A stretch of DNA of 64,000 nt from a virus (IMGVR_UViG_3300012984_000010); one strand, 5' to 3'. Counted from the first letter of the stretch, positions 37,661 through 61,711 are shown. The notes: generated from the sequence alone by a model not told the origin. Program-made: numbers and translations.

Positions 37661-37834
37661 TCACTTATGCTTGAACCATTCGACTTGTTCCAAGCGCTTC
37701 TCGGCTTCACCCTTCGAATCGTAGCAACCGCCGCTCCAAGAACCGTTGTCAGGCGAGCGCACGCAGTATTGACCCTTTTCTTTGCGGATCACGGCCTCTT
37801 TGAAGCGGGCTACAACGGAACGGGGCGAGATCAC
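37661..37834 (-). CDS. 57-aa protein missed by the ORF track (GTG start)
   Basis: MISPRSVVARFKEAVIRKEKGQYCVRSPDNGSWSGGCYDSKGEAEKRLEQVEWFKHK*; starts 6 nt after the stop at 37841. Confidence 0.75.
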   Translation of the reverse strand: MISPRSVVARFKEAVIRKEKGQYCVRSPDNGSWSGGCYDSKGEAEKRLEQVEWFKHK

Positions 37835-37840
37835 AAGGCC

Positions 37841-38488
37841 TCAGTGCCCCCAACCAGAAGACGTCTCATACTTCTCTTTGCCATCCCATTTGCTGGCATG
37901 ATGACCGTCGATCTTAGTCCCATTGGGGCCAGGAATCGAACGTTCCGCGGGACCATGGAAGCTGTTTGGCACAGCAACAACATAGCTAGCTCCCTGGGAC
38001 TCACGAACGACCTTTGAACCAATCGGCCTCGTGACGATCACTTTACCCTTGACTTCGACCACCTGAAAGAAGTTCACGTTCGTTTGGTCGTAACCCCACG
38101 TGCTATACAGGATGTCGCCCACCACAAAGCCGTGAACGTGGTTCTTACGGTCATCCACACGCTTCTGCTTGAATTCCAAGCTCAGCTTACGAGATTTGAC
38201 CGTTTCATCGATCTGACGTTGACGATTGGCGTCGCTCTTGAAAGAGTAGTTCCAAAGAGGCTTGTTCTGCTTGGCCGCAAACGCAATCGCGTAGAACTTG
38301 CCTTGACCTTCCCACTGCCAGATCGCCAAATCCGTGCCCTCTGGGGTGAGCGGAGCTTGATCCCTCACCTCTGCAGGTAGGTAGATCGACCTAGGCATCG
38401 TGAAGTTGGCTGCCGCCTTAAACCTAGCTGCCACGCCTTTGGCAGAGGCTTCTTTCGGAGACTTTTCTGTCGCGTTGATTTCAGCCAT
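37841..38488 (-). CDS. Hypothetical protein (ATG 38488 preferred)
   Basis: GDILYSTWGYDQTNVNFFQVV C-terminal domain; N-terminal KGVAARFKAA. Confidence 0.7.
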   Translation of the reverse strand: MAEINATEKSPKEASAKGVAARFKAAANFTMPRSIYLPAEVRDQAPLTPEGTDLAIWQWEGQGKFYAIAFAAKQNKPLWNYSFKSDANRQRQIDETVKSRKLSLEFKQKRVDDRKNHVHGFVVGDILYSTWGYDQTNVNFFQVVEVKGKVIVTRPIGSKVVRESQGASYVVAVPNSFHGPAERSIPGPNGTKIDGHHASKWDGKEKYETSSGWGH

Positions 38489-38548
38489 GTTCCTATAACG
38501 GCTCAAATCATAAAGGATTAAGGAGGTTGAAAAAGATAGGCCAGTCGG

Positions 38549-39199
38549 TCAAATAGCCCAGTCGATAGGAGCCTCCCCGATCTGCTGAAGGGCCGCATTC
38601 ACTTTCGAAAAAGGCTTGGATCCAAAGAACCCGCTAGAGGCCGACATAGGGGAAGGGTGGGCCGACTCGATGATGGTATGCCTGGAGTCAATCAGGTCCT
38701 TCTTGGCCCTCGCATGACGGCCCCAAAGGACGAAGATGACCGGTTTCTCTCTGGAGCTGAGGGTTCGAATCACCTCATCAGTGAACTGTTCCCAGCCCTG
38801 CCCCTGATGTGAACCCGCCTGATGAGCTCGGACCGTCAAAGTGGTGTTAAGCAACAGAACTCCTTGGCGACACCATGGCTCCAACCAACCGGTCTTTGGT
38901 TTCTGGATCTCTAGGTCTTCCACCAGCTCCTTGAAAATATTGCGCAAGCTAGGAGGTAGTTGGGTGCCTGGTTGAACCGAGAAACTAAGCCCATGGGCCT
39001 GACCTGCCCCATGGTACGGATCTTGCCCCAAGATCACCACTTTGACATCATCGAAGGGCAGCTTGAAACAATTGAACGTATCTTGTGGGGGAGGAAAAAC
39101 AGGACCACGCTTCCGCTCAATGGCAACGAACTCAACCAACTCCTTGAAGTATGGCTTGGTGAATTCACCCGACAGGCGTTGCTTCCAAGAAGAATCCAA
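38549..39199 (-). CDS. ung: Uracil-DNA glycosylase family 1
   Basis: VILGQDPYHG, QAHGLSFSV, GVLLLNTTLTV, FVLWG, HPSPMS. Confidence 0.95.
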   Translation of the reverse strand: MDSSWKQRLSGEFTKPYFKELVEFVAIERKRGPVFPPPQDTFNCFKLPFDDVKVVILGQDPYHGAGQAHGLSFSVQPGTQLPPSLRNIFKELVEDLEIQKPKTGWLEPWCRQGVLLLNTTLTVRAHQAGSHQGQGWEQFTDEVIRTLSSREKPVIFVLWGRHARAKKDLIDSRHTIIESAHPSPMSASSGFFGSKPFSKVNAALQQIGEAPIDWAI

Positions 39200-39202
39200 T
39201 CC

Positions 39203-39538: not shown

Positions 39539-39591
39539 ACGGTGCTGTACACCGTCATCGGATGGCCATATTGGCCAATTGCGGCGGCTAT

Positions 39592-40194
39592 TTAAGCCTT
39601 GGACAACAACATCTTGTCCATTTGTGCGGTGGCGGCCCGAAGGTCCTGCCTAGCGTCAACCATTCTCTGGATAACCTGACCCAGCTCGTTGAACCAAGGA
39701 CGTAGCCTAGGGCTCTCGTCTACAGCGAGGTCTTGACAGAGGTTGACAGCCTCAGTGAAACTGCGATCGGCACCCTTATCTACCTTTGGAAGAATGTTTC
39801 GATTCAACAGATCGGCCAACTGTTCCTTCTTCTCTTGCAGTTCGGGATTTTCGGTCAAGTAGTCGGCAGTACCTTGGAGGAAATGAACGGCGTTTCGAAC
39901 GGCAGCCTCAATCCCACGTTGGTCTTGGGCCCTAGCAGCATCCATTCCCTGTTCGATTGCTGAAAGAACATGATCAAGGTGCTTCTTGGCGGCAGTATCG
40001 TCAATTTGACGAGATGCGTCCTTGATCTGGTCCACCACATCATCAAAAGCTTCCAAAATAGCCTTAGTGTCGTGAGTGCCGTCCCGCATGTATTTAGCAG
40101 CAATGGTGTTCAGACTGGTCTTAGCTTTATCAAGCTTTGACCGAATGTCGTTCTGAGCTGTAAACCGGCGGACGATATTTTTGGCTTGCGACAT
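39592..40194 (-). CDS. All-helical hypothetical protein with N-terminal KNIVRRF motif
   Basis: 200 aa, preceded by CCCTTTTATAG. Confidence 0.7.
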   Translation of the reverse strand: MSQAKNIVRRFTAQNDIRSKLDKAKTSLNTIAAKYMRDGTHDTKAILEAFDDVVDQIKDASRQIDDTAAKKHLDHVLSAIEQGMDAARAQDQRGIEAAVRNAVHFLQGTADYLTENPELQEKKEQLADLLNRNILPKVDKGADRSFTEAVNLCQDLAVDESPRLRPWFNELGQVIQRMVDARQDLRAATAQMDKMLLSKA

Positions 40195-40211
40195 GATATC
40201 TGGGTAAGGCT

Positions 40212-42342: not shown

Positions 42343-42361
42343 AACGGTGACTTAAGCTCCA

Positions 42362-42400: not shown

Positions 42401-42425
42401 GATCAAGCCGTTAGGCTTATTGGGT

Positions 42426-43307
42426 TCAGATGCGGGTGACGACCAAACGGGTCATAGCACGCGGGTTGAATGCGCCTATGCCGACGTTCTGAAAACAGCT
42501 GAAACCAATTGTGCGGGCCTTCGGGTCATCCGCCGACAACACGGTCAGTTCCGTGCGGACGGGGAAGCGACCGAAGTTCTCTGGCTCGCCGCAGACGTAC
42601 ACGAAGCCGGCCGGAACCAGACGCGACGTGATGATCTGAGCACCCCAGAGGGTGGCCTGCAAACCTGTCTTGAGCAGGGTGGCCTGCGACTCGATATCCA
42701 GGATGTCGCGACCGAACTTGCGGATGTCCGCGTAGTCGGTGGCGTTCATGTAGATACGAGCAACACGGAGGTCGTGGCGTTCGATTTCCGCGAAAGCATC
42801 GGCGAGGACGCTTGGCGAGATCGGGGCCACCACGGCGATATCCGGGTTGGTCTGGCCGGGGAGGGTGTCGAAGCCCGAGACAGCGATGCTGTCGAGGACG
42901 GCGAACACGCGCTCATCTTCAGCGGCCTGAATCTGCGCCTTGGCGAGGTCCTGGCTGCGTTCAATGAGGTCGAAACGACGCTCCTTGATCTGGGTCAACG
43001 GTATTTCGGGGTTCGAGGCGATCTCGAACAACGGGAAGATGACACGACGTGGCTTCTGGATAGCCAAGATGTTCGAGCCTTCTTCGCCGACCACGAAAGC
43101 CGTAACTTCCGGATCCTTGTCGTAGATTGGCAATGCGCCGTCCGGTAGTTGTTCTACCAAGAAGGTCTTGCGACCAACGGCCGTGTAGTCACGGCGGAGA
43201 CGCAAGGGTTGGATCATCGAGGCTGCGAGCTTGGCACGACCGGCGGCGGTCTTGATGTACTCGGAGATGATCTGCTGCTTGACTTCGTTGCTTACTTGCT
43301 GAGGCAT
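42426..43307 (-). CDS. Major capsid protein (HK97 fold)
   Basis: GRAKLAASMIQPLRLRRDYTAVGRKTFLVEQLPDGALPIYDKD resembles large-myovirus MCPs; strong C-ending codon bias; follows protease-scaffold-decoration; own terminator. Confidence 0.88.
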   Translation of the reverse strand: MPQQVSNEVKQQIISEYIKTAAGRAKLAASMIQPLRLRRDYTAVGRKTFLVEQLPDGALPIYDKDPEVTAFVVGEEGSNILAIQKPRRVIFPLFEIASNPEIPLTQIKERRFDLIERSQDLAKAQIQAAEDERVFAVLDSIAVSGFDTLPGQTNPDIAVVAPISPSVLADAFAEIERHDLRVARIYMNATDYADIRKFGRDILDIESQATLLKTGLQATLWGAQIITSRLVPAGFVYVCGEPENFGRFPVRTELTVLSADDPKARTIGFSCFQNVGIGAFNPRAMTRLVVTRI

Positions 43308-44053: not shown

Positions 44054-45280
44054 TCAGATGCCGAAGATGCCCTTCACGTCTGGAGCCGACTGCCAGAGGC
44101 TCGACAACTTGTCGATATCTCCGCCCGTAGCAGCGTTTCCACCGCTACCGATTGCCGACACACCAACTGAGGGCTGAGTGCCAATCGTACGCTTAGAGGC
44201 CGTACGGGTTGTGTGCACAGTCGAAGCCTGAACCGGAATACCAGTCAGGATTGCGTTTGCTTGCTGTGCTTCGATGACTTCTTGATTGGAAGCAAACAAG
44301 GTCTTGAGAACCTCATCCTCGGAAGCGGCGATGTGAGTCTCACCAACATCCATCGAGATACCGTCCAACTCAATGTCATTGAAGCTATTGGCCAACACTG
44401 GCTGACCAACCTCGTCTTGGAGCATCTGGTCCAGCAATTGGTCATCACCCAACTGCTGCTGAACCTGAGCGGGAGCCTGTTGCTGCTGTCCTTGACCCAG
44501 AGCTTGCTGGAACAACGACATAACCTGATCCTGCTGCAAGCCCGTCTGGGCCATCGCATCACAAGCGGCCTTGAAAGCCTGGTAGGCAGCTTGCTTCTTC
44601 TGCTCTTCCGCATCATCCTTAGCCTGCTGCTGAGCCTGCTTTTGCTGCTCTTCGTCAGCCTGCTGAGCTTGCTGCTGGGCTTGCTTAGCCTGCTGCTCCT
44701 GGCCCTCTTCCTTCTCATCCTTCTTCTTGAAGTTCTCAGGAATCTGACCAGCTTGCTTCTGCTCTTCCGAGTCTTGAGCTTGCTGTTGCTGAGCTTGTTT
44801 GCTCTGCTCTTCTTCGTCTTCCTCTTCGGCTGCCAGACGATTGACAGATTCGATCAAAGCTGCATCAGGCATATGCATGAATGCGAGAGCTTGATCTTCA
44901 ATCATCGACTCAGAAGCCTTCTTGGACAGGCAGCGCTTGGCCAGCTTGATGCAGAGAGAGGCCTTCTTCTCCAGCACCTCATCTTCCGCAGCAGCTTCTT
45001 CTTGCTGTTCAGCAGCTGTCTTCTCAGCATGGTTGAAAGTGTCACCACGTAGTTCGGGCATTCCGATCTCGTTGCGCTTGACTTCACCACCGCTGTACTC
45101 AGCTTTCCAAGTAGTGTTGGATGGATGAACATCTTCGGCGAAATCCGAAGGTCCACCGATCTCATACTTGTCGGCTGCCGGTTGTTGGCTCAAATGGTCT
45201 TGGTTCATTGCACGGGGGTCTTCTGCAATTCTGACGTTCTGTGCAATCTTTTCACGATTCCAGGTGGTGCGTTCGCGCAT
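44054..45280 (-). CDS. Capsid scaffolding protein, Gln/Glu-rich
   Basis: 408 aa of low complexity between protease and capsid; five KQA repeats. Confidence 0.75.
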   Translation of the reverse strand: MRERTTWNREKIAQNVRIAEDPRAMNQDHLSQQPAADKYEIGGPSDFAEDVHPSNTTWKAEYSGGEVKRNEIGMPELRGDTFNHAEKTAAEQQEEAAAEDEVLEKKASLCIKLAKRCLSKKASESMIEDQALAFMHMPDAALIESVNRLAAEEEDEEEQSKQAQQQQAQDSEEQKQAGQIPENFKKKDEKEEGQEQQAKQAQQQAQQADEEQQKQAQQQAKDDAEEQKKQAAYQAFKAACDAMAQTGLQQDQVMSLFQQALGQGQQQQAPAQVQQQLGDDQLLDQMLQDEVGQPVLANSFNDIELDGISMDVGETHIAASEDEVLKTLFASNQEVIEAQQANAILTGIPVQASTVHTTRTASKRTIGTQPSVGVSAIGSGGNAATGGDIDKLSSLWQSAPDVKGIFGI

Positions 45281-45326: not shown

Positions 45327-46874
45327 TTACGATTTCGAGAGATCGAAAAGTTTGCCTTTTGTGATCAAGGCATCGGTCTCTGATGTGGTCAGTTCTCGTC
45401 CAACTGCTCGACGACAAGCCGCCAAGTAGCTATCTGCATCTCCGTAAGCCAACATCCCGCCAACAGTCAAAACGGTGCGGTAGATTCGATGTTCGCCTGC
45501 AATCCTAACTCCCTGGATGTTGTCCAGAAAGCGTGAGATTGCCAGTACTTCCGTTCCTGAGTACGAAGCTTCTTTGACGGCTTGCCAACCGCCATTCTTG
45601 AACAACAACAAGCCAGTCAAGACCTTGCGAGCCATCTCTGGATTGGGTGTTTGGGCCAACACCACCTCTGCTAGACGCTTCCAAGAGGAGCTCTTTTGGA
45701 CCGCTTCACGCAGCAAAGTGTTGTTCTGATTTTCTTTCAAATCGGCACGAGGGGGGAGATCTTTTTGATTCATCTCACCTCGAACCTTCTCCAACGCCTT
45801 CTCTTTGATCAGATCAGCCAGGCTATCGACTGCCTTATCTATGGGTTGCTGATCTTTCTTAGGGTTGGCCGGAGCCGCTTGATCAGCCCCTTCAAATTGT
45901 TCTTGATCCTGTGATGGATGCGAAGGATCCGATAGAGAAATCCTAGTACGAGGAGCAATGGCAGGGTTCTGAACACGACTCACAACCCTCATATCGTTGG
46001 TCTGCAGATGAGCCGCTTTTCCGAATTGAGAAGCGTCCGGAACCTGAGTGGGCATCGAGAAGGCGACTTGCACCTTGTTACCAACCTTGGCCAATTCATC
46101 TGGAGTTAGGATGTTGCGAACCACCGCCCCCTTGAAAGCAGGATTGGCGACCCAACTGGCCTCAATAAACTTGACCGAGCGAGGATCTGTCACATGGCCG
46201 CACAGCTCGGCAATCTTACGAGTCCTCCCCAGAGCATCAATGAACTGATTGCCCTTGGAGTATTTGATGTGTTGACAGAGCTGGGTCTCGTCTTCCGCCA
46301 CATTCCCACATTGTGTGCAGGTTGTGTGGGCGACCGTGCAACCCATACTTAGAGTCTGTAGTTGCTGAGACTTGATGGCCGCAATCAGAGGGGAATGCTT
46401 GAGTTCCGTTGCTACCAAGATGTCTACGTAGACCGTGTCTCCAAGATCACGAGCCGCCGCATCAATGATGCGTCCCTTAGACAACTCAGGTATTTGCAAA
46501 TGTTCTACGTAATTCTGACCACCAATGAAGGTGCGGAACGTTGCGAGCAACAAGTTACGTTCCCAGCTATCCTGATTGCTGTTGACATACTGTGCCGTCT
46601 TGGTAGTGATGTAGTAGTCTTGATAACGACGATCGATCTGGAAACCGTTATCAAACGTACGTCCCAACTGACCAGGACCGTTCTCGGTATCGACAGACGC
46701 GATGATGGTACAGTGTGTAAGCAGATATTCTTTGGGGTCGTATTTCTGGACCACTTCCAAGCTGGCTGTCTTGGCAAAAGCTCCGCCCATCGACTTGGCA
46801 CGCAAATCGTCCCATGTCGACATCGTTACGACGGGCTGAACCACCGCCGCATTGGCGTACTTGGAGAAGGCCAT
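45327..46874 (-). CDS. Prohead maturation protease with Zn-finger insert
   Basis: NYVEH (His), TLSMG (Ser), IEASWVANPAF as in HK97/herpes-like head proteases; CTQC...LCQH insert. Confidence 0.78.
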   Translation of the reverse strand: MAFSKYANAAVVQPVVTMSTWDDLRAKSMGGAFAKTASLEVVQKYDPKEYLLTHCTIIASVDTENGPGQLGRTFDNGFQIDRRYQDYYITTKTAQYVNSNQDSWERNLLLATFRTFIGGQNYVEHLQIPELSKGRIIDAAARDLGDTVYVDILVATELKHSPLIAAIKSQQLQTLSMGCTVAHTTCTQCGNVAEDETQLCQHIKYSKGNQFIDALGRTRKIAELCGHVTDPRSVKFIEASWVANPAFKGAVVRNILTPDELAKVGNKVQVAFSMPTQVPDASQFGKAAHLQTNDMRVVSRVQNPAIAPRTRISLSDPSHPSQDQEQFEGADQAAPANPKKDQQPIDKAVDSLADLIKEKALEKVRGEMNQKDLPPRADLKENQNNTLLREAVQKSSSWKRLAEVVLAQTPNPEMARKVLTGLLLFKNGGWQAVKEASYSGTEVLAISRFLDNIQGVRIAGEHRIYRTVLTVGGMLAYGDADSYLAACRRAVGRELTTSETDALITKGKLFDLSKS

Positions 46875-46877
46875 GAC

Positions 46878-47264
46878 TTAGAACACCTCGAAAGGAGGCA
46901 AACCTAGGAATCGATCAACGAGGCGATTGGCAGAGGCATACTTGGGGGATTTACCGCTCGCAATGAACTCATCAATCATCTTGATTACCGCCTTGACAGG
47001 CGGCATATCGTTCACGTGGAATTTCTTAATGAGGGCCGCCTTCAATGCATTTAACGCCTCAGGAGTTGATTCGTTCAAATAGGAATGAACCAACTGCTCA
47101 GCTTCCTGTTTGGCACCCAGCCAAAGAGAAAGACGATAGATGTTGTCTGGACGACCCTTCTTTAGGGCGTTCTGCTGAAGAAGCTTGTCATAGCGAGTGA
47201 GACGGCCCACTAGGATGGTCAAGAAATTCTTGACAGTGCCTGGAATGTTGGCTGATCTCACCAT
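46878..47264 (-). CDS. Helical hypothetical protein with C-terminal KYASANRLVDRF
   Basis: 128 aa, overlaps the upstream stop. Confidence 0.6.
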   Translation of the reverse strand: MVRSANIPGTVKNFLTILVGRLTRYDKLLQQNALKKGRPDNIYRLSLWLGAKQEAEQLVHSYLNESTPEALNALKAALIKKFHVNDMPPVKAVIKMIDEFIASGKSPKYASANRLVDRFLGLPPFEVF

Positions 47265-48426: not shown

Positions 48427-51261
48427 TCAGCCCAGGTTCTTGAGAGCCTGGAGTAGTGGCCGGAAAGCGGCGCGAGCGGCGGCCGGAGTCTCAGAAGCAG
48501 TCTTGATCACAAGAGCCTTGAGTGAGGCGTACTTGGCAGCTTCCTTCTTCTCCTCTTTGTCGTCTTTCTTCTCTTCCTTGTCGTCGTCCTTCTTCAGCCA
48601 AGGGGGCAGCTCACCAGCAGTTTTCTGCTCCTGTTCCTTGTCTTGTTGCTCTTGCTCCGCCAAACGATCCGCGAAGTCGGTCATCTCAAACGCGGTCTTG
48701 GCATCAAACTTTGCAACCTTAGCTGCGAATTCACGAACGGTGCGTGATGATTTCATGGGGGTCACTTCTCCAATGGTGGCACTCAATGTGTTGTTAAAAG
48801 AAGAAGTGCTGTCCGAGGACCCGCTCTTCTCAGTTACGGTCAAAAGGGTTTGGGTCGTGCTGGGTTGCGGCTTGCCCGCCAACTTGGCCAAAAGATTGGC
48901 ATATTGGGTGGCATTCACTGCACCGTTGTAACGACTTGAGTAGATGGCCAGATCCAGAGCTGCTCTCAATTGAGCATCTGGGTCAACCCCCGGGTCGGCC
49001 ACATCCAACAAGCTGGACCCTAAGAATTGACGGGCCTCAGCCAAGATGGTTGTCCAATCAGACTCTCCCAAGTCTCTTTGGTGCGGCTGCATCCAACCTG
49101 GATAGTCTGGTGCCCCATAGGCGTACGGGTCGACACCATGATAGACACTCGTTTTGCTGGTAGATCCCATCACATGGGTTCTAGAATAAGTAAAAACACT
49201 AGCCTGTTTGACAGCTTCGTGACTGGCATCCTCATGTTGATTCTGGGAAAAAGCATCGTCCCAAATATCTGAGGCCTTATCGGGGCCCTCTTCTGGAGAA
49301 CCTGTGACTGGTTTTTCTGGCTCTGGTGGGGCTTCCTCAACGAATCCTCCTGGAGGTTTACCTTGAGGATTCTTCATGTAGGCCTGCAGGGCCTCTTCAT
49401 GCTTGGTCTTACGATTAGCCCAAGCACTGTATTGAGAAGACCAGCGCTTATGGAGTGCCTTGTACTCCTTGTGCTCCAATGGCCCTAATAGTTGCTGAAC
49501 TTTGGTAGCTTTCTCGGGGTCCAAAGTCCTCAATCTATTCATGAGGCGGGTTCGAAACAGCTTCTGGGAAGGATTGATCGAATGATCATCCCCATAAAGG
49601 GCGTTGCGTTTCTGAAAGTATTGCCCAGCCTTCTTCAGACCACTCAATATGCCCTCAGGAGTGTCTCGCTCCGAGATGTTGCCAGATGAGCTGTTGGTCA
49701 AAAATTGCTCTTTAGCAAGACGGTAATCGTTGGCTTGGAGGTAAGCTTTGGTCGCCTTAGCGGCCACCGGATTACCATCAACCTGCTTCAAAAGCTCCTT
49801 GACTGCCCTATCACTGATACGAGCCGTCTCTTCTCCGCTAGCTAGTGTGTCCTTGTAGATCTTCGCTGCTAGCTTGTCTCCAACCTTTGGAGAAGGGTTG
49901 GACAACAAGGTTTTGGCAATCTGACCAGCGATCTTCTCAGGTATCCTAGGTTTGCCTGTCAGTGAGCTCTTGTTGGCTAGTTTTTGAGTCAAGCTGTCGC
50001 GAGCAGCCAAGCTAAGAGCCACCATCCGCATCTGATGTGACCGCAAAGCTTCCGCTTTTTCTTCATCAGACAATGTATCGAATGGAACTCTCTCTCCTGA
50101 TTTTCGCCAATAAGTGGGTGGTTTTACCTTGGCAGGATCAATTTGATAGAAATGCCCTACCTTCTCAGCAAAATCGGTCGGCTTAGAGATCTTGACTCCC
50201 AGTTTGGCTGTGTTGTAGTCACGCACAAGAGTTTTGACGTCCTGTGGATGCATGCTGGCAAAGTTGGCCGCTTCCTCAGGCTCAAACGTATTGAGCAACA
50301 GACTCAACGCCTCTTGTTGGTCCGCCTCAGTAGGGGGTTTCCTTACAGGTTCGCCGATACCGTGTCGCTGACCTTCTGAGGGTGGTTTGAGCTTTTTCTT
50401 GGAAGGTTTTTCCTCTTGCGCCGGTTCCTTTGCAGGCTCTTCCTTCGTGGGTTCCGCCTTGGGTGCGGACTCGCCTTCAGAAGGGGTGGGCTGTTGTGCC
50501 GGATCTCCCTTTGGGACTTCGGTCTTTGGTTCCTCTTGCTTCGGAGCAGGCTCAGCAGCTGGCTCGGCGGGGGCGGGGGGCTCAACTGGCTTTTTCTTAC
50601 CCTTTGTCTTGGGGGCAACAGACGGTTTAGTTTCCAGTGCCGCCTTCAGATCCCCAATCGTCTTGATGCTGTCCGGCAGATCGACCTTGGGGAAGAACTT
50701 CGATGCAGGTAGATCGGGGTTGCCCTCAACGATGCCATTTAGGGTCTCACCAGGGGTGATGAACCGTTTGAAGATGTCCTTGAGACGGGCATCCCCCTTG
50801 GACATTTCGCGCAGCTGATCTCCAGCCTGCTGGTAGAACTGCTCCTTGTCGGTAGGCTTTGGTGTCGACTGTTCGGCAGGAGACGTCTCCTCCTTGGACT
50901 CAGGCACCACAGGATTGGGAGATCGCTCGGCCTCTTCCTCTGGCTTGACAGCCTCGTACTGACCAGGCTTCTCTTTTAGAGTGTCGGGCGAGATCTGTAC
51001 CGTCTCACCCGTTTCTTTGTTCTTGGCAGGGATACGCTCATTTCTGGCAAAACGGCGCACCACCCGTCCGACCGACCCACCAATATCCTTGAAGTTCCGA
51101 CTTTCGTCCGGATCCTTCTCTTGATCAGGGTCTGCCTCGGGCGTTACTCGTTCCCTCCTAAGATCTCTTCTAGGGGGTTTCTGTTTGGGCGCCGGTCGGA
51201 CGAGACGACTCGCCTCGTCGTCCTGACGTTCCTCTGGAGTCTTGGTTGACCAACGGTCCAT
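48427..51261 (-). CDS. Large putative internal head/core protein
   Basis: 944 aa between portal and protease; Pro/Glu/Lys linkers; GRVVRRF; several K-x-A sites. Confidence 0.7.
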   Translation of the reverse strand: MDRWSTKTPEERQDDEASRLVRPAPKQKPPRRDLRRERVTPEADPDQEKDPDESRNFKDIGGSVGRVVRRFARNERIPAKNKETGETVQISPDTLKEKPGQYEAVKPEEEAERSPNPVVPESKEETSPAEQSTPKPTDKEQFYQQAGDQLREMSKGDARLKDIFKRFITPGETLNGIVEGNPDLPASKFFPKVDLPDSIKTIGDLKAALETKPSVAPKTKGKKKPVEPPAPAEPAAEPAPKQEEPKTEVPKGDPAQQPTPSEGESAPKAEPTKEEPAKEPAQEEKPSKKKLKPPSEGQRHGIGEPVRKPPTEADQQEALSLLLNTFEPEEAANFASMHPQDVKTLVRDYNTAKLGVKISKPTDFAEKVGHFYQIDPAKVKPPTYWRKSGERVPFDTLSDEEKAEALRSHQMRMVALSLAARDSLTQKLANKSSLTGKPRIPEKIAGQIAKTLLSNPSPKVGDKLAAKIYKDTLASGEETARISDRAVKELLKQVDGNPVAAKATKAYLQANDYRLAKEQFLTNSSSGNISERDTPEGILSGLKKAGQYFQKRNALYGDDHSINPSQKLFRTRLMNRLRTLDPEKATKVQQLLGPLEHKEYKALHKRWSSQYSAWANRKTKHEEALQAYMKNPQGKPPGGFVEEAPPEPEKPVTGSPEEGPDKASDIWDDAFSQNQHEDASHEAVKQASVFTYSRTHVMGSTSKTSVYHGVDPYAYGAPDYPGWMQPHQRDLGESDWTTILAEARQFLGSSLLDVADPGVDPDAQLRAALDLAIYSSRYNGAVNATQYANLLAKLAGKPQPSTTQTLLTVTEKSGSSDSTSSFNNTLSATIGEVTPMKSSRTVREFAAKVAKFDAKTAFEMTDFADRLAEQEQQDKEQEQKTAGELPPWLKKDDDKEEKKDDKEEKKEAAKYASLKALVIKTASETPAAARAAFRPLLQALKNLG

Positions 51262-51299: not shown

Positions 51300-53132
51300 T
51301 CAGTACCTTGAATCCTCTTGAGGAGGGGCTTCTTGCTTGATCTCTAGGCCTACGTATTTGGCCATCCGTTCCAAAACATCTGTCTTTTCGGCCAAGACTC
51401 GGCCTACTTCATTGTAGAGCGATCGAAGGACTTCGTTGAACAAGGCATCGTTGACCGTGAACAAATCCCGCTCAATCTTGGCTTTGGTATCGTTGGGGTC
51501 GATATTGAGCATTTCCAGAATCAAATCGATCGAAATCGAGCCCTTCTGGTACAGATTGTACAGGGCGTCGAAAGTGTCTTGGCTGTCTCGCAACGGCAAG
51601 CGAGTGAAGCTTAGACGCGGATGTAGCACCACTTCTTGCCCCCACTCGTCCTTCTCTATGAAGCCCATCCTACGTGCCACAGGAGCAAACAGTTGATCTT
51701 CAACGTATTCCTGGAGTATTTCTCTCAGATGTAGGTAACGCTGGTTGATCACCTCTAGTTTGAGACGATCCCCACTGTAGAGCGATTCACCACTCATCAA
51801 ACTCTCAGTGACGCCCAGACCAGTAAGGATACGACGTTCGGTCTGCTCATACTCGCTAGCAAGATCAAGGAGGCGATCCTTGGACCCCATCTCTTCCCAA
51901 TGGATCTCGTAATTGGTCACAATCGAGTAATCTGGGTCCTGCATCGAGTAGTCGACCTGCTCACGCAACAGATCGGCATCCACATCGCTCAACCCTTCAG
52001 CCCACACAACCCGCTTGGGAGTCATTGCCCTTGAGGCGATCGATGTCTGTGCTTGGCGGAGCTTGTCCCTGAAATAAAGCGTACTCAGACACCTGTTCAG
52101 TATCGATTGCCCAAGATTCGAATCAGCCGATTTGCTGCCTGTCAGGATGAACGCAAACGACCCTTCATCAGGATTGGTACCAAGCGGGATCGTTTTCCCC
52201 GTCATGGTGTATTCGCGTATTTCTTCAGGTATTTGGGACGCCAGACGCTCAGCAGCCGGATCCCCCAAAGCGGCCCGTTCTAGGATGGCCTTATCACGGT
52301 CAGAAGGGATCAGCTCAATGATCGAGTCGTCAGAATAGTCGAAAGGAGTGATAATCACTCGATCAATAGGCAGAACACGGATTCTGGACCAACCCTGATA
52401 ATGTTTCTGGTAGTACTTGTGTTCTTCCTGCTCACGATCTTCACGTTCAACCAAGACCGATTCGTCTTGTTCGATCGCCTCGCCTTCCTCTGTGAGGAAG
52501 GATTGCTTGACCACACGTCGCTCATACCCAACTTCTTCAGGTAGGTCTACCCGCCCATCCTCAGCAAAAACCACCGCCGCCCCATCTAACCAATAGTGGT
52601 GAACCATCGTGATCAGCCGACGGAACAGCTTGGTCTTTTTACACATACGCTCGAATCTATCGAGAATGTATTTGCCGTAATTGTCCGCACTACTGAAACC
52701 TGGGGGAGCTTCCCGAGGCTTGGGAGCCGCGAGACGTATTTTCGACAACGGTAGTTCGGTGTGGAGGTCAATCGCCTGCCCCACCAATTCATCGTTCTCG
52801 TAGAAGTGTCGGTAAATCTCACGACGTTCTCGGATGCTTTGAGGCAGTTCCAAGAAGTCGGTTGACAGTTGGGGACTGAAGAAGTTGCCGTGGGAACTTT
52901 GGATGGTTCCCGCCCCCATCCCGCCCCCATAACCGCCGCTAAAGCCAGTCCCGCCTGGCCCCATACCGCCAATGCTTGAGGCCATCTTGAGCTGTTGACG
53001 GGCCAGACGTTCCTTATAGGTCAGCTGATTGCTATAGGACCCAGCGATGTGAGGGGTTGCCTGGGGGCGAACAGAAGTTCGCACCAAATACTGCCCAGGA
53101 CTCGAATAGTTGGTGTAGCGATCATTCGCCAT
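51300..53132 (-). CDS. Portal protein
   Basis: 610 aa after TerL; FYENDELVGQAIDLHTELPLS, DPDYSIVTNYEIHWE, ILTGLGVTESL; SD GGAG. Confidence 0.85.
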   Translation of the reverse strand: MANDRYTNYSSPGQYLVRTSVRPQATPHIAGSYSNQLTYKERLARQQLKMASSIGGMGPGGTGFSGGYGGGMGAGTIQSSHGNFFSPQLSTDFLELPQSIRERREIYRHFYENDELVGQAIDLHTELPLSKIRLAAPKPREAPPGFSSADNYGKYILDRFERMCKKTKLFRRLITMVHHYWLDGAAVVFAEDGRVDLPEEVGYERRVVKQSFLTEEGEAIEQDESVLVEREDREQEEHKYYQKHYQGWSRIRVLPIDRVIITPFDYSDDSIIELIPSDRDKAILERAALGDPAAERLASQIPEEIREYTMTGKTIPLGTNPDEGSFAFILTGSKSADSNLGQSILNRCLSTLYFRDKLRQAQTSIASRAMTPKRVVWAEGLSDVDADLLREQVDYSMQDPDYSIVTNYEIHWEEMGSKDRLLDLASEYEQTERRILTGLGVTESLMSGESLYSGDRLKLEVINQRYLHLREILQEYVEDQLFAPVARRMGFIEKDEWGQEVVLHPRLSFTRLPLRDSQDTFDALYNLYQKGSISIDLILEMLNIDPNDTKAKIERDLFTVNDALFNEVLRSLYNEVGRVLAEKTDVLERMAKYVGLEIKQEAPPQEDSRY

Positions 53133-55181: not shown

Positions 55182-55462
55182 TCATCCTTTGGTTCACGTT
55201 TTCTATCAGGGGATTGCCCCCACTTAGATATGATGCGTTCGAGAAACGTAAGCTGCTGGATGTCCCCTCTAAATAGCTTCTCCCAGCTACCGCCACCTTT
55301 TCGGAACACCAACCTCAGAAGCATGAAATCTTCTGGATTGATGATCAAGTCTGCCCCCAACAAATGGTCCGCAAATTGGCGAATCACCCGATTGGAGAAC
55401 ACAAGCTGTAGAGGACGGGGCTCTTCCAATTCACCCTCTCCTTCGGACAGAACGACGTCCAA
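55178..55462 (-). CDS. Small hypothetical protein
   Basis: 94 aa, TTG start, overlaps the TerL end. Confidence 0.5.
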   Translation of the reverse strand: MDVVLSEGEGELEEPRPLQLVFSNRVIRQFADHLLGADLIINPEDFMLLRLVFRKGGGSWEKLFRGDIQQLTFLERIISKWGQSPDRKREPKDE

Positions 55463-57434
55463 TCAAGCTACGATCGCCCATACCGTGTTTCATCATACGA
55501 GTCATCTGGTAGCTTTGAACGCTTGGGCTGGAAGCAACAATCGGGCGATAGACACTCCCATGAGTGGTGTGTTTTTGGTTCATCAAAACCTCTGAGCTCA
55601 ACCAGATGGAGCGTATCAAAGCATCGCTCATATCGTCATGAGCGCCGGCTTTTTTGGGTGCTTGAACCGATACGATGTTCTTGCTGATTTGTTCAGCTTG
55701 GAGGGTCAACAGCTCGGCAATCAAGGGGGAGTGTTTGCTCCCGTCCCTGACTCGTTCTGGGATAGGCCAGTCGTACAGTTCGAGATTCTCATCGAACATG
55801 AACATTTTGGCCACCTGATACATCTTGCTGGTCTGATCTCTGGTGTAGAATTCAGAGGTGAACTGCTTCAAGCCATGCTTGTGTAGATTCTGTTCTAGAG
55901 GGATGCCGTTCCAACGGTCAAAAATTCCTGCAGTGATGTGGAATTTCCTGCACAAGGCCCGAATCCATTCCCCAATGGCGTCAAAATCGATACGTTCAAC
56001 GTTACTCAACTGCTTGGCGTAGTCGGTAGCCTGACTGAGGTCTAGGTGTGGATTGACGTCACGCCAATTCTGACCTGCGTACCATATTTCGTGGTAATCA
56101 AGGACGATCTTGGTCCCTTCCACATGAGTGATCGCAATAGCGGTCCCGTCATTCACAAGTCCAACGTCGATTCCCATCTGATGGGGGGATCGAGGCACAC
56201 CCATCACCTTTGGGCGAAGCTCTGGCTTGACGCAAGCCATCAAATCCGTTTCACGTTCCACCCAACCACGAACCTGGTCACTGAACTGAGCTCCGTGTTC
56301 GGTCACGAACGTCACAGGATCGGCGTGGTACTTTTCCTTGTAGTAGCTGCTAGGAACGGTCGGGTTGATTTCCCAGGTGGGGGCTTGGATGGCAAGGATG
56401 TTTTCCGAACCAGGTCCGCCCCGCATCGCCAGATCGAACTTGTTGTAAAACAAGCCAGAACGGCCCAAAGGCGAGGAAATGAGGATGATACGGCTCTCTA
56501 CCGGCGCTTCCTTGCCCGTTACAGGGTCGATGAGAGGACGGCGAGATACAGGATCTTTCTTCGAGTAGGCGGCCGATGACGGCACAACAGCGCCGTACAC
56601 ATCCTCAGCCGACATACCACCCTTCTCAAGAAAGTGCGCCACCTCGTCCAGGATGATGACGACGTTACCCGCACCACGGAGCCCCTTGCCGTTCGCACCC
56701 TTGAATGTGACACGGATGGTGGCTTTACCGTTCAGCGATTGGTACTTACCGTCCCCATTCCGCACATCTGTACCGAATTTCTCGATGTCGTAGGGGGTAC
56801 GGAAGTTGAGAAAGGTCTGGGTGTTAGAAGCTGTATGAGGTTTGAAGTACTCACATTTGACAATGTGTGAGGCCACTTCGTTGAACAACAGACCTGCCTG
56901 ATCCTTGTCGGTCGCCACCGAGATGATCTGGATACGGTTTCCGTTCGGTAGACCGTAGTACTCCTGAGGGTTGTAGAGATTGAGGAGGCGGTACACCTCG
57001 TAAGAGGCGAAAATGCCAGATAAAGTCGTTTTGCCGCCACGGCGTCCGATCGACAGTACCAGTTCCCGTCGATCGTGATCCTGCACACCAATATTGCAAC
57101 GCCCCTCATTGTGGAGGAAGGACAGGTAATCCCGTTCCGACAGCTCGTACAAGACCTTGGTCTTGAGCATATCGGTAACCTGGATTCGCCGATTCGGATC
57201 CTCAGGAATATGGGTGTCTAGCTCAAGATTGTAGTAGAGCTTGACAAGGAACCGCTGTGCTGGATACAGCGTCATGTTCAGCCCCCAGGGCTGTTCGATG
57301 TATTCCAATATGCTGAAAATCTTGGGACCCGAAGCTGCACCTGAATTGGTGACAGCCGCTTGAGCCGCTTTGACTTTCTGATTGGAGCTTCGGACTAGAC
57401 TAGATAGTCCGTCCCGTTTCTTCTCTGCAGGCAC
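55431..57434 (-). CDS. terL: Terminase large subunit
   Basis: Walker A SIGRRGGKTT, Walker B VIILDEVAHF, coupling motif ISSPLGRSG, RNase-H-like MGIDVG and HDDMSDAL. Confidence 0.93.
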   Translation of the reverse strand: MPAEKKRDGLSSLVRSSNQKVKAAQAAVTNSGAASGPKIFSILEYIEQPWGLNMTLYPAQRFLVKLYYNLELDTHIPEDPNRRIQVTDMLKTKVLYELSERDYLSFLHNEGRCNIGVQDHDRRELVLSIGRRGGKTTLSGIFASYEVYRLLNLYNPQEYYGLPNGNRIQIISVATDKDQAGLLFNEVASHIVKCEYFKPHTASNTQTFLNFRTPYDIEKFGTDVRNGDGKYQSLNGKATIRVTFKGANGKGLRGAGNVVIILDEVAHFLEKGGMSAEDVYGAVVPSSAAYSKKDPVSRRPLIDPVTGKEAPVESRIILISSPLGRSGLFYNKFDLAMRGGPGSENILAIQAPTWEINPTVPSSYYKEKYHADPVTFVTEHGAQFSDQVRGWVERETDLMACVKPELRPKVMGVPRSPHQMGIDVGLVNDGTAIAITHVEGTKIVLDYHEIWYAGQNWRDVNPHLDLSQATDYAKQLSNVERIDFDAIGEWIRALCRKFHITAGIFDRWNGIPLEQNLHKHGLKQFTSEFYTRDQTSKMYQVAKMFMFDENLELYDWPIPERVRDGSKHSPLIAELLTLQAEQISKNIVSVQAPKKAGAHDDMSDALIRSIWLSSEVLMNQKHTTHGSVYRPIVASSPSVQSYQMTRMMKHGMGDRSLIGRRSVRRRG

Positions 57435-57442
57435 TCGCTACC

Positions 57443-58018: not shown

Positions 58019-58401
58019 TTCTTACCTTCCGCCGTTCCTTTCGCGCCATTCCCCTCAGTACGAATCAAGTATTGGGACAAGTTACGTACTACATCGTAAC
58101 CCTTGTCTTTCGGGATCTGATTGGAGATAGCCTTGGACAGGTCCTTGCCCGATTGAACCAAGTTCAGTACCCCCGTCTGGTCTGGAGTAGGGGTGAACAC
58201 ATCCTCAGGGCGAAGATCTCGCCGATCCGGCTCCACAATGTCATCCCCCTCATCCTTGGATGTCCCGTAATCTTTCGTGATAGCCGTACCTATCCCCTTG
58301 GGCTTGTTGATAGGCGTGGTGTTTTTCCACGCCTTTTGACGAGCGCCAGGAGCTTGGTCCGCTTGCTTGAAGCGAACCACAATCCGACGTGCGGAGATCA
58401 C
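58015..58401 (-). CDS. Hypothetical protein with N-terminal RRIVVRFKQA
   Basis: 128 aa; ATGA overlaps. Confidence 0.65.
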   Translation of the reverse strand: MISARRIVVRFKQADQAPGARQKAWKNTTPINKPKGIGTAITKDYGTSKDEGDDIVEPDRRDLRPEDVFTPTPDQTGVLNLVQSGKDLSKAISNQIPKDKGYDVVRNLSQYLIRTEGNGAKGTAEGKK

Positions 58402-60386
58402 AGTCGAACTTTCTGATGGCTCCCAAACTCGATATTCTGGCTAGCTGTCTTTAGTTCGGGTTGGAGGTCAAAGCTCCCATCATCGTGCTGGAGCTGATAC
58501 TCTTGCATCACGCTCAAGCCGTTGTTCATGAGGCTTTCGTACGACACGACAGTTGAGGCGCCAGAGGCCAAAATGGCTCGTTGTTCGGCCATTTTGTCGA
58601 TATAAGGGGGTTCAACTACCAATTGCTTGTTGATGACTGAGCAGAAGCCAGGACGAGTTTGATGCACACAGGAAGCGCACTTGTCCCCTACCTTCAGGTA
58701 CTGTACTGCCGCCCTAGAACGGTGGGCTGTTGAGGCAGTGGCACAACCCTTCCCATAGTCGTCATAGACGGTGGGATCGATGTACTTGATACCCTGTAGA
58801 CCCTGTTCGGCCAACACCACTTTGAGCTCACCCGCTGTTGCTTGAAGGTCCCGTACGTCAAAACGGCTCTTCAGCAGATTGAGCAGGTCTTGGCCGTAAA
58901 GGCCTTCGTTCATGTACTTGGAAGCCGACTTTAGGATCTCTCGTTTGGTCAACTCATTGGTGCTGGCAGCCCTGGATTGCCCATAGAAAGCCTTCTCAAT
59001 CGAACTACGGACCGCTGAGCCGCTGGACGCCAACGGGGCAGAAGCGGCCTTGTGGATGGCCTTGAGAGCCTCAACTGGAGTCGGACCCCACGAACACTTG
59101 GCAGCATCGTGCGGCAACTTTCCTGCAATGCGGTGCTCATCCAACACCGCTGCAACCGTGGTGGGGGTCAAGACTGCTTCAGCAGAAGCCACCAATGCGC
59201 GGCCGTACATCATGCAGCGGCCCACCTTGTTGAAGATACAGGTCTGGCACTTGTCACCCGCCACAATGGCTCGAACCTTCGATCCGTGCTTGTTGATAAA
59301 GTCCGCCCCCTCTCGACAATCATCGAACGAGGTCTGATTGGAGTAAACAGCCCCATAGAGGCCTGCTTGCTTGAACAACGGCACCCACTCGGACTTGGTT
59401 TCCTCAAGCAACGTCAGGTCGAAAGCGAGCCTCAACGCATGAACCAGCTCTGGCTCACTATGACCCTTGAGCATTTCACGGCTCAAAAGAGCAATGATTG
59501 GGCGGGCCTTGGAAGCTGCGATCTTTTGCTGAGCTTCAACATCCCGCTTCTTGGTCAGGCTCGCGACTGCAATCAATTGCTCAGAAGTGTTGCCTTGAGG
59601 GATAGGAGCTTGTGGAGCTTGTGGTCGGCCCGTAAAGGCTACTGGAATGGTCGACATCTCACCCAAAAAGGCTTGACGAATACGTTCCTTGGGGGTGCTT
59701 CCCGTAGAAGCCTGGACCGATCTTCCCCTTGCCGCTTGTTGTTTCTCAATCGTACTGGCCAACGCTTCAGTGTATGGAACCTCAATCTGAAGGTCCTTGT
59801 GAAACACACCACACACACTGCTACCGTCAGCCTGCACAGAGCGGTGTACACAATCACCGCAAGCCTGCTTGGCAAGAACGAACGGAGCGTCTAGGGCGAA
59901 ACGGCGGACGAACTCTGAAGCAGTTTTACCCCCTTTAGCACAATCAGGGAAGTCGGCCGCGCTGATGTACAGCTTACCAAGTAGACCACGCTCAGCCATG
60001 ACGGTCGCCAGAGCGGTTTTGGCTAGACCCAAGACGGTAGAGTCGTACCTAGAAGATAAGGCATGACTGATCTTCTGGGGGTCCGTTGACTGCATAATCG
60101 CCAAACGAGCAGTACGAATCAAATCTTCTGGGACAGAACGGAGTTTTCCGTGGATAGACGACAGATCGCCCATCGTCTTTGGTTCCCCCTTGTTGGGTAC
60201 CAATCTTGAAGGAGACTCGTCCTGATGGTTCCACAAGGCAATCAGATCTGGAGCGATATCCAGATTCTGCTTTGGCAGGCGATCCTGAGCACGATACTCA
60301 GCCTCATCGACATCCAGCCAATCCAAATCTGAGACGCCGGAGCTGCCCTCTTTCATAAAGTTGGTCAAGTCGCCAAGATCAGCCAT
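58398..60386 (-). CDS. Protein with three Cys-rich repeated domains
   Basis: CGDCVH..CGVFHKDL, CQTCIF..CMMYGRAL, CASCVH..CSVINKQL, each with an upstream Cys. Confidence 0.75.
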   Translation of the reverse strand: MADLGDLTNFMKEGSSGVSDLDWLDVDEAEYRAQDRLPKQNLDIAPDLIALWNHQDESPSRLVPNKGEPKTMGDLSSIHGKLRSVPEDLIRTARLAIMQSTDPQKISHALSSRYDSTVLGLAKTALATVMAERGLLGKLYISAADFPDCAKGGKTASEFVRRFALDAPFVLAKQACGDCVHRSVQADGSSVCGVFHKDLQIEVPYTEALASTIEKQQAARGRSVQASTGSTPKERIRQAFLGEMSTIPVAFTGRPQAPQAPIPQGNTSEQLIAVASLTKKRDVEAQQKIAASKARPIIALLSREMLKGHSEPELVHALRLAFDLTLLEETKSEWVPLFKQAGLYGAVYSNQTSFDDCREGADFINKHGSKVRAIVAGDKCQTCIFNKVGRCMMYGRALVASAEAVLTPTTVAAVLDEHRIAGKLPHDAAKCSWGPTPVEALKAIHKAASAPLASSGSAVRSSIEKAFYGQSRAASTNELTKREILKSASKYMNEGLYGQDLLNLLKSRFDVRDLQATAGELKVVLAEQGLQGIKYIDPTVYDDYGKGCATASTAHRSRAAVQYLKVGDKCASCVHQTRPGFCSVINKQLVVEPPYIDKMAEQRAILASGASTVVSYESLMNNGLSVMQEYQLQHDDGSFDLQPELKTASQNIEFGSHQKVRL

Positions 60387-61711
60387 CAGTTCGTCCTGTC
60401 TGTTTTTTCGGGCCTATTGTGTATTGGATCTGGCCGGTAAGTGTGAGTGCTGTAGTCGTATCGCACATAAGGAGTTTCCAAGTCCTCGTACGTATAGTCT
60501 GTGTTCATCATGCTGGGAGACATCTGACCTGCAGGAGTAGGTTCCCCCGGCATCTCTGATTGAGCAAACGTGTCGTCCCCTCGATAGTAATCTGAACGAG
60601 CGACCGGCCTATCCCCATCATTGGGCAGCTCTCCAGCCGCATGGTGATCGCTGACTGCGGCATCGAACTCTGGAGTGGTGTCTCCCGAGGAGCCGGCAGG
60701 AGTGCCTGGCAAACCAGAGGTAGGACCGTAAACCCCCTTATTGCCGTAACCCTCGCCAGAGGGGTTACCGTACCCACCTGCACCCTCTCCTTTGGCCCCA
60801 TAACCAAGACCAAAATCATAGGCGTCTGTGGGGGTTGGTTCCGTGACAGCACCAGGCATAGATGATCCAGAGTATCGACTAGGAATGTAGCCCGCCCCCT
60901 GGTCGTAAGGCTGTCGTTCGATCATAGAAGGATGACCCCAACCATCGTACGCCATCTCTGGCTCAGGTTGATCTTCTCGATCCAAGTGTTCTACCCTAGG
61001 GCCTCCCAATTCAGTTGGAGACACTGAGGAATTGCTTTGATGGTTGTAACTGGCTTCCTTCGAGCGAGTCATCGGCTTAGCCTGATCGACCTCACTACCA
61101 GAGCCTCCAGGTAGGCTTGACGCCTCAGCTTCCTCTGATTCGTCCTGATCCTCACCGCCGTCATTCTCAGCGTCGATCTCTTCCTCTTCCTCTTCAGACT
61201 CAGCGGTAGGGTCTTCGAGAATTCCTTCCGATTTTTCGACGTAGCGTTCGATGTCCTCGGCATCGTTTTCATCCAGCATTGCTAGACGAGGGCGCCAATG
61301 TGGAGCTGTGATCTCATCGTGAAGTGTATCAGTGATAGCACTCAAAGCTTCACAAGCGGCGTACAGCTTCTTACGAATATCCGGAACCCCCATCACGTAC
61401 CCACGACCACCCAACATGCCGTCAGGACTGACGGTGGCGGACTTCAGGCGACTCAGGTGCTTGTAAGCTGTCAGAGCGTGTCCCAGCGCAACACTTGAGG
61501 CCCAGAGCGTTTGAGCCATTGGCTTCAAAGCCTTGGGATCAAAGGGGTGGTCTTTAGGGATATTTCGCTTTGCTGTCAGGCTGCCGCCACCCCCACCATC
61601 TATCTCCCCACCCTCTTCCGGGGGAGTGGGGTCAGACGGAGGAAAGGCGGCTGTTTTCTGTACAGCGGCTGCCTTCGTCATAACTCGCTTGATGAGATCT
61701 CGATTGGACAC
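60386..61711 (-). CDS. Hypothetical protein: helical N-domain plus acidic Gly/Pro-rich tail
   Basis: 441 aa; KAAAVQKTAA N-terminus; repeated S(S/G/E)(L/M)PG. Confidence 0.7.
   Translation of the reverse strand: MSNRDLIKRVMTKAAAVQKTAAFPPSDPTPPEEGGEIDGGGGGSLTAKRNIPKDHPFDPKALKPMAQTLWASSVALGHALTAYKHLSRLKSATVSPDGMLGGRGYVMGVPDIRKKLYAACEALSAITDTLHDEITAPHWRPRLAMLDENDAEDIERYVEKSEGILEDPTAESEEEEEEIDAENDGGEDQDESEEAEASSLPGGSGSEVDQAKPMTRSKEASYNHQSNSSVSPTELGGPRVEHLDREDQPEPEMAYDGWGHPSMIERQPYDQGAGYIPSRYSGSSMPGAVTEPTPTDAYDFGLGYGAKGEGAGGYGNPSGEGYGNKGVYGPTSGLPGTPAGSSGDTTPEFDAAVSDHHAAGELPNDGDRPVARSDYYRGDDTFAQSEMPGEPTPAGQMSPSMMNTDYTYEDLETPYVRYDYSTHTYRPDPIHNRPEKTDRTN

Follow-up and report, generated by a model that had tools for sequence, protein, structure and literature searches.

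A short peptide tag recurs on unrelated proteins encoded by the viral contig IMGVR_UViG_3300012984_000010 and by its relatives, a clade of uncultivated phages with genomes of 400-530 kb. The DNA considered here, called the window, is a stretch of 64,000 nucleotides and is part of a contig of 142,489 bp that is about 30% complete according to CheckV. The motif is maintained by selection, is portable between protein families, is placed mostly at protein termini and, in complete relatives, occurs throughout the genome; the proteins that carry it are also enriched in a second short motif, [KR]-x-A-S. In our judgement the chances are evenly balanced that the peptide, as read from sequence comparison, is a position-independent tag for loading proteins into the phage head, often with a release site beside it.

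A first-pass annotation of the window had listed six main instances of the motif, and all six were recovered in place, on the minus strand. They are given first, followed by one degenerate copy and one tag-like segment; lengths of proteins are in amino acids (aa).

58360..58395, minus strand: N-terminal tag S-A-R-R-I-V-V-R-F-K-Q-A, residues 3-14 of a 128-aa protein (58015-58401)
37793..37828, minus strand: N-terminal tag, residues 3-14 of a 57-aa Cys-containing protein (37661-37834)
38411..38455, minus strand: K-E-A-S followed by the tag A-K-G-V-A-A-R-F-K-A-A, residues 12-26 of a 215-aa protein (37841-38488; phrog_37844)
40156..40191, minus strand: candidate N-terminal tag S-Q-A-K-N-I-V-R-R-F-T-A of a 200-aa helical protein (39592-40194)
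51043..51081, minus strand: internal tag G-G-S-V-G-R-V-V-R-R-F-A-R, residues 61-73 of a 944-aa post-portal protein (48427-51261)
46902..46943, minus strand: K-Y-A-S followed by the C-terminal tag A-N-R-L-V-D-R-F-L-G, residues 108-121 of a 128-aa protein (46878-47264)
61667..61699, minus strand: degenerate N-terminal tag D-L-I-K-R-V-M-T-K-A-A of a 441-aa protein (60386-61711)
55361..55399, minus strand: tag-like N-terminal segment F-S-N-R-V-I-R-Q-F-A-D-H-L, of uncertain status, of a 94-aa post-terminase protein (55178-55462)

Because the pattern had been defined after the fact, it was tested on other genomes. The strict form, [RK]x[VI][VA]xRF, has exactly four matches in the 45,637-aa proteome of the 142-kb contig, all of them in this region. 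Eighty loci surrounding the capsid gene contain 58 copies of the core R-[VIL]-[AVLI]-x-R-[FY], against 5 of the reversed pattern and 5.3 +/- 2.4 in shuffled sequences; in the larger set, enlarged by 48 loci (132 related loci overall, 1,848 unique proteins), the count rises to 97 against 6 for the reversed pattern. A profile of the tag gives 62 matches of at least 5 bits and a single decoy match. When a profile built from related phages alone was run on this genome with reversed-sequence decoys, five of the six main instances took the top places at 5.3-8.8 bits, the best reversed decoy reaching 4.5; these are the tags of the 944-aa, 215-aa and 57-aa proteins and of the two 128-aa proteins, with the N-terminal and the C-terminal copy. 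The motif therefore stands above background in the genome and its relatives. The sixth instance, K-N-I-V-R-R-F of the 200-aa protein, matches the strict pattern and is missed by the relatives-only profile; it also has no ortholog in the fetched loci that could be used to test it, and for both reasons it is the weakest of the six.

The similarity of these segments could in principle be due to chance, to common ancestry of paralogous N-termini, or to a DNA- or RNA-level repeat at gene starts. The post hoc definition of the motif, and the circumstance that two carriers here both start with M-I-S-x-R, are in keeping with such an origin, which we nonetheless regard as extremely improbable. It is refuted by the 11- to 16-fold excess over reversed and shuffled controls, by the lack of relationship between the carriers outside the tag, by the occurrence of tags in N-terminal, C-terminal and internal positions, and by the retention of the motif in orthologs at 30-60% identity, also where their flanks have diverged. 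Synonymous codons vary between copies of the tag, and hence selection acts on the peptide.

Conservation within families is seen for most of the instances. The 128-aa protein at 58015-58401 has 191 homologs, and their alignment keeps an N-terminal [LR]-R-V-[AV]-A-R-[FY] at 55-85% identity; its AlphaFold2 (AF2) model is mostly of low confidence, with residues 5-10, in the tag, modelled as a short helix. Orthologs of the 57-aa protein show G-R-L-V-A-R-F, R-R-V-A-Q-R-H and R-R-I-V-A-R-Y, and those of the 215-aa protein have one or two N-terminal copies. The 128-aa protein at 46878-47264 is the top match of the relatives-only profile; its orthologs keep the tag, and one of them has two copies. In the 944-aa family, R-[VI]-x-x-R-F is retained at residues ~57-81 by orthologs with only ~30% identity, some of which have 2-3 copies, and the tag is followed (residues 74-110 here) by a conserved, hairpin-like segment, K-x-K-[DE]-T-G-x-x-V-x-[VI]-S-x-E-T-L-K-E...K-Y-E. 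An atlas search with the 944-aa protein gave no usable match. In one relative (L140:1177-1575, minus strand) a separate 132-aa protein starts with the tag-plus-segment unit of this family.

Two looser versions had been proposed in addition, with different outcomes. The segment I-K-R-V-M-T-K-A-A of the 441-aa protein is degenerate in this genome, and orthologs have canonical N-terminal tags at the same place, for example S-R-V-L-A-R-Y and R-R-L-I-A-R-Y; judged from these orthologs, it is a decayed copy of the tag. The M-L-K-R-I-A of a ferritin/Dps-like protein (15073-15720; PF00210, E-value 1.4e-10) is not a tag, because the orthologs of that protein have none; the protein itself, with an N-terminal extension of ~70 residues, is an untagged one. 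In the family of the 94-aa protein, F-A-N-R-V-I-R-Q is conserved, and in one sub-clade the 94-aa domain is the C-terminal part of a type IB topoisomerase of 349 aa whose N-terminus bears a canonical tag. That topoisomerase gene lies between the terminase and portal genes; this genome has only the small 94-aa counterpart of it.

The consensus of 50 unique instances is x-S-L-A-A-R-V-A-A-R-F-L-[EQ]-A. Arginine is invariant at positions 0 and +4, hydrophobic residues occupy positions -3, -2, +1, +2, +5, +6 and +8, and preferences are likewise seen at positions that the search did not fix (L at -3, A at -2, L at +6, A at +8). This spacing fits an amphipathic helix of 12-14 residues, with the consensus S-L-A-x-R-V-A-x-R-F-L-x-A, and the tag would presumably bind its partner in helical form. 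Some copies read R-R-F-L-x-K and thereby recall S-R-R-x-F-L-K of twin-arginine (Tat) export signals. That the tag is a Tat or other export signal is hardly credible: its two arginines are normally four residues apart (0 and +4) and not adjacent, the sequence after the tag is polar or charged and disordered instead of forming a hydrophobic h-region, and some tags are C-terminal.

The relatives in which the tag was followed range from close to remote. The closest record is the uncultured 485-kb phage LR745208.1, which is syntenic with the contig (capsid protein 83%, terminase 44% identical) and also bears N-terminal tags; other close relatives are hundreds of IMG/VR contigs of up to 529 kb. Farther away are Tunturi_5 (capsid protein 47% identical), with one weak internal match to the tag, and Bacillus phage G (38%), in which the gene order is similar. 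When the proteins were clustered, matches fell in 27 families, of which about 20, unrelated to one another, are left after look-alikes are dropped. The look-alikes, which are either conserved structural helices or not conserved, comprise the head maturation protease, the family of 33460-34317 and internal matches in the terminase. In the protease, L-A-I-S-R-F belongs to a helix conserved in the family, E-I-L-A-[IV]-S-R-x-[LV]-D, in which the F is not conserved; in the family of 33460-34317 and in the terminase the match is not conserved as a tag. The portability of the tag had been asserted from the window, and it is borne out by these families, at the protein level.

Six-frame profile searches, which are blind to gene starts, were run on five complete relatives (407-529 kb) and returned 6-18 matches in each, 41 of them with an E-value below 0.05. 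Thirty matches were inspected, and about 27 of them are at the ends of reading frames: about 22 are no more than a few residues away from a start codon, and 4-5 are near a stop codon. The placement near termini that had been noted in the window is thus the rule in the relatives, with internal tags, such as that of the 944-aa protein, as an addition to it. The notion of a proteome-wide system holds for the complete relatives, where tagged genes are spread across the genome; in the 142-kb fragment the carriers are 6-8 proteins, all within a 21-kb stretch of the head module. Several carriers are conserved head-module genes adjoining those of the portal, protease and terminase. Carriers with a recognisable domain in relatives are a type IB topoisomerase, two J-domain proteins and a GNAT acetyltransferase, and there are metallopeptidase-like carriers with an HExxH motif, whose domain matches are weak. 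The topoisomerase (PF01028, E-values 1e-26 to 1e-28; L091:13004-14053, L149:514-1560 on the minus strand, L135:613-1569) has an N-terminal tag in one lineage and, in another, at 51% identity, a degenerate N-terminal together with a canonical C-terminal tag. In the J-domain proteins the tag is at residue 3 or at residue 353. The HExxH protein of this genome is untagged, and its closest ortholog has two tags; 2-3 copies are found in some other carriers as well. We found no description of an RVAxRF-type tag in searches of the literature.

The second motif, [KR]-x-A-S, associates the tag with head proteins. The proteins of the head module here (33400-62000) contain 30 copies of it against 7.8 +/- 2.6 expected, an approximately four-fold excess, and those encoded in the remainder of the genome contain 26 against 22.8; no excess was seen for permuted or reversed forms of the motif. 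Position scans indicate that K is preferred to R in the first place, that only A is enriched in the third, and that S, and weakly A, is enriched in the fourth; the commonest form is K-T-A-S. The same excess is seen in 24 tagged proteins encoded elsewhere in the genomes of relatives, which contain 19 sites against 4.4 +/- 1.9 expected. Four of these sites are within the tag itself (R-V-A-S), which leaves 15, and the untagged neighbours of the 24 proteins have 8 against 8.3 expected. Irrespective of gene location, tagged proteins therefore have in common a sequence feature that is specific to head proteins. Furthermore, [KR]-x-A-[ST] stands 2-7 residues upstream of internal or C-terminal tags in nine independent cases among at most 35, with a background of 2.1% per 12-residue window (P about 4e-8); the forms found there are K-Y-A-S, K-F-A-S, K-H-A-S, K-T-A-S, K-A-A-S, K-D-A-S and K-E-A-T.

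Two products of the head module are of particular relevance to this motif.

45327..46874, minus strand: head maturation protease, 515 aa (phrog_18299, E-value 6.8e-11), the candidate enzyme for [KR]-x-A-S
44054..45280, minus strand: acidic, Q/E-rich scaffold-like protein, 408 aa, recognised by its composition and its place between the protease and capsid genes

The scaffold-like protein is conserved in its N-terminal 90 residues and its C-terminal tail. It contains R-T-A-S (nt 44195-44206), which is present in 34 of 38 unique orthologs, about 32 residues ahead of the conserved C-terminal D-K-L-S-x-L-W-x-S-A-P-D-V. Because [KR]-x-A-S is enriched only in head-module proteins and in tagged proteins encoded elsewhere, stands upstream of internal and C-terminal tags and is nearly invariant in the scaffold, it is probably a cleavage site of the maturation protease. 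Processing of head proteins by a prohead protease at short motifs is known from giant phages, and the proteases of T4, phiKZ and SPN3US use Glu-type motifs (PMC5694885). The Glu-type motifs [AGS]-x-E and [LI]-x-E show no clear excess in the head proteins here. In the AF2 model of the protease only residues ~385-515, a conserved helical C-terminal domain, are confidently predicted, and the protease domain has a predicted local distance difference test (pLDDT) value of about 50; a search of the model against solved structures gave no match that reaches Z 5.

The tag might be a docking element (exosite) or a preferred cleavage site of this protease, cut between A and [A/S] in R-V-A-[A/S]-R-F, in which case it would mark substrates and would not load anything into the head. 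In ~44% of instances the core of the tag, R-V-A-[A/S], conforms to the enriched [KR]-x-A-[S/A]; tags also occur together with [KR]-x-A-S, and the protease has a helical C-terminal domain that is both conserved and confidently folded. We consider this role of the tag quite unlikely, since position +3 is D, Q or R in over half of the instances, residues not enriched after [KR]-x-A, and since the invariant R at +4 and the F/Y at +5 lie outside the head-wide motif. Removal of eight N-terminal residues would moreover serve no evident purpose unless the peptide had acted first, and a prohead protease acts inside the procapsid, so that carriers would still be in the head.

Head loading appears to be the function that fits best, because all carriers of the contig are in the head module, several are conserved head proteins, and the carriers share [KR]-x-A-S. 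The first-pass annotation had taken the motif for a device that loads effectors into the head; the destination is the part of that reading which these sequence comparisons favour, and the restriction to effectors fails, as core head-module proteins carry the tag. Alternatively, the tag could dock to a hub other than the capsid, such as a DnaK-type chaperone of host or phage, DNA or a replication-transcription site, the membrane, or a ubiquitin-like conjugation system of the phage. Basic amphipathic helices at termini also serve as membrane anchors and partner-binding motifs, and carriers in relatives, scattered as their genes are over complete genomes, include a DNA enzyme and J-domain proteins. 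Such a hub is in our view unlikely, though not negligibly so: the strict R, R and F/Y together with small Ala on the hydrophobic face argue for one specific protein pocket and against a membrane or promiscuous binding by a chaperone, the carriers of the contig are confined to the head module, and the enrichment of [KR]-x-A-S is head-specific and is found in tagged proteins and not in their neighbours.

Several observations weigh against head loading or reduce the force of the evidence for it. The counts given above take in orthologs and so are not independent events, and the gene calls are simple longest-ORF (open reading frame) calls. The topoisomerase and the J-domain carriers would also be expected if the tag led to DNA, a replication site or a chaperone hub. 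It had been noted that K-x-A follows the tag directly, which is true of three of the four N-terminal tags here; in relatives, only 14 of the 50 unique tags at N-termini have [KRLIH]-x-A at +6..+8, and S, T or A is also present at +9 in just one. N-terminal tags thus rarely adjoin [KR]-x-A-S, and for this reason a unit of tag plus cut site is supported for internal and C-terminal tags only. Finally, phage G, the nearest cultivated relative by capsid protein, shows no such tag. The tag profile has no match in phage G, and a Lys-tolerant DNA pattern gives 5 matches against 3 control matches; comparison of two pattern matches with the phage G annotation showed the first to be out of frame and the second to be weak. 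Particle proteomics of this related megaphage reports many non-structural proteins (PMC12484599), which is a precedent for head loading in general. As phage G lacks the tag, its particle proteomics cannot serve as a test of the idea.

If the tag is a head-loading signal, it could act as follows. Lying in disordered termini or linkers of many unrelated proteins, its helix would dock to one conserved phage partner in the assembling procapsid, and the carriers would thereby be built into the head. These carriers would be of two kinds, core head-module proteins and accessory enzymes delivered with the DNA, the latter represented in relatives by the type IB topoisomerase, the J-domain proteins, the GNAT acetyltransferase and the metallopeptidase-like proteins. 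The head maturation protease would cut [KR]-x-A-S between A and S, freeing the scaffold tail and, where the site is adjacent, the tag. The position of [KR]-x-A-S just upstream of internal and C-terminal tags and of the scaffold tail means that both tags and scaffold could be released after assembly. With the procapsid as the presumed destination, candidate receptors are the conserved N-terminal domain of the scaffold-like protein, the C-terminal helical domain of the maturation protease, and the capsid protein:

42426..43307, minus strand: major capsid protein, HK97 type, 293 aa (PF05065)

The capsid protein has a mean identity of 94% over 44 unique relatives, with third codon positions 56-69% identical; it is 37.6% identical to gp27 of phage G. 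Conservation of the protein in spite of diverged third codon positions points to unusually strong purifying selection and not to recent transfer, and it fits a surface that has many partners. Across phages in which the terminase is ~65% and the scaffold ~44% identical, the capsid protein is 93-98% identical. A complex prediction with the capsid protein, scaffold residues 1-150 and 300-408, and residues 1-40 of the 128-aa carrier had a score of 0.26 (mark 0.34) and counts neither way.

A more specific proposal, which we put forward tentatively as plausible but somewhat doubtful, is a two-part code of address and release that would be specific to this clade of 400-530 kb phages. A helical RVAxRF tag, at either end of a protein and in one or several copies, would dock to a nearly invariant surface of capsid or scaffold, and a separate cut by the head protease between A and S of [KR]-x-A-S would free the cargo. 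With such a code the phage could vary the enzymes that it loads for delivery with the DNA (topoisomerase IB, J-domain proteins, acetyltransferase, peptidases).

In its proposed manner of working the tag is like the capsid targeting sequence of T4, the cargo-loading peptides of encapsulins and the tail of the herpesvirus scaffold; it is a member of none of these, because it has another sequence, is position-independent and sometimes repeated, occurs on core head proteins as well as enzymes, and has an A-S-directed candidate release site. The targeting sequences of T4, N-terminal stretches of 10-20 residues that are present on IPI-III and Alt and removed by gp21, are likewise short peptides common to unrelated proteins (PMC5694885). 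A further likeness to T4 is that the tag goes with the head module and with a motif of the protease type, and that it would load enzymes for injection (PMC5694885). The first-pass annotation was right in treating it as an analogue distinct from the T4 signal, since it differs in sequence and placement. The two sequences are unrelated, and the tag is not an N-terminal propeptide: 4-5 of the 30 genome-wide matches are C-terminal, one family has the tag at residue ~70, and there are sometimes 2-3 copies. There is no Glu-type site here; the candidate site is [KR]-x-A-S, which adjoins non-N-terminal tags only. Furthermore, core head-module proteins carry the tag, whose role in packaging is a proposed one.

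Encapsulin cargo-loading peptides are short conserved terminal peptides on diverse cargo, sometimes repeated, and are taken to attach to the lumenal side of a shell protein with the HK97 fold. Here too a short, mostly terminal peptide is found on about 20 unrelated families, in phages with a nearly invariant shell protein of the HK97 type; unlike encapsulins, these are DNA-packaging phages with terminase, portal, scaffold and protease genes, the peptide has a different sequence, and its binding to the shell is hypothetical. The scaffold/protease of herpesviruses has a C-terminal capsid-binding tail that is released by assemblin at [V/L]-x-A-S, between A and S. The likeness is one of sequence pattern only, an x-A-S motif just upstream of an amphipathic terminal peptide (the nine independent sites), together with the near-invariant R-T-A-S before the conserved C-terminal tail of the scaffold here. 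The tag differs in being on about 20 families and not on the scaffold, P3 is K or R instead of V or L, and the cleavage is a candidate one. A fourth comparison is with the HK97 maturation protease, whose C-terminal tail is, according to what is reported of work by Duda and colleagues in 2013, sufficient for entry into the procapsid, with the delta domain as the partner. A short terminal peptide that brings a protein into the procapsid is what is proposed here; the HK97 tail is known to serve one protein only, and in the phages considered here the protease is not a carrier.

To our knowledge, the way in which proteins are chosen for the head of very large phages is understood for T4 alone, with no more than an outline for phiKZ-like phages. 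A head-loading tag that acts from either terminus, if this is what the motif is, would allow the set of packaged and injected proteins in uncultivated megaphages to be predicted from sequence, would give a handle for locating the binding site on the HK97-type capsid or on the scaffold, and would be a compact device for loading foreign proteins into large capsids. [KR]-x-A-S would define a new specificity of prohead proteases, unlike the Glu-directed sites of T4, phiKZ and SPN3US.

The head-morphogenesis module occupies 33-62 kb of the contig on the minus strand. In order of transcription, it starts with the 441-aa protein, a 662-aa protein and the N-terminally tagged 128-aa protein. A 191-aa protein, which judging from position alone could be the small terminase subunit, precedes the large terminase subunit; then follow the 94-aa protein, three tandem paralogs and the portal, and after the portal the 944-aa protein, proteins of 131 and 236 aa and the second 128-aa carrier. 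Next come the maturation protease, the scaffold-like protein, a 205-aa protein in the position of the decoration gene of phage G, and the capsid protein; the module ends in a variable stretch. Two further members of the module are as follows.

55431..57434, minus strand: large terminase subunit, from tblastn matches to annotated terminases
51300..53132, minus strand: portal protein, 610 aa (phrog_16240, E-value 9e-25)

The three tandem paralogs between terminase and portal (53624-55181) are 172-174 aa long; a scan of PHROGs and Pfam with the 173-aa copy found no known family. The element CCTTTTAT is present in four copies in the 142-kb contig, three of which sit 25-38 nt upstream of start codons, namely those of the 200-aa carrier (copy at 40219-40226), of the 944-aa carrier (upstream of 51261) and of the gene at 31755-32357. 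It may be a promoter element, the two carriers and one other gene being too few for a conclusion. Directly behind the capsid gene, a 315-aa ORF (41395-42342) is similar to a portion of the 1229-aa ORF that LR745208.1 has in this position and is probably a mobile insertion of the nuclease type. In the variable stretch, amid the tagged genes behind the capsid gene, lies a family-1 uracil-DNA glycosylase (38549-39199) with the motif G-Q-D-P-Y-H, which is itself untagged.

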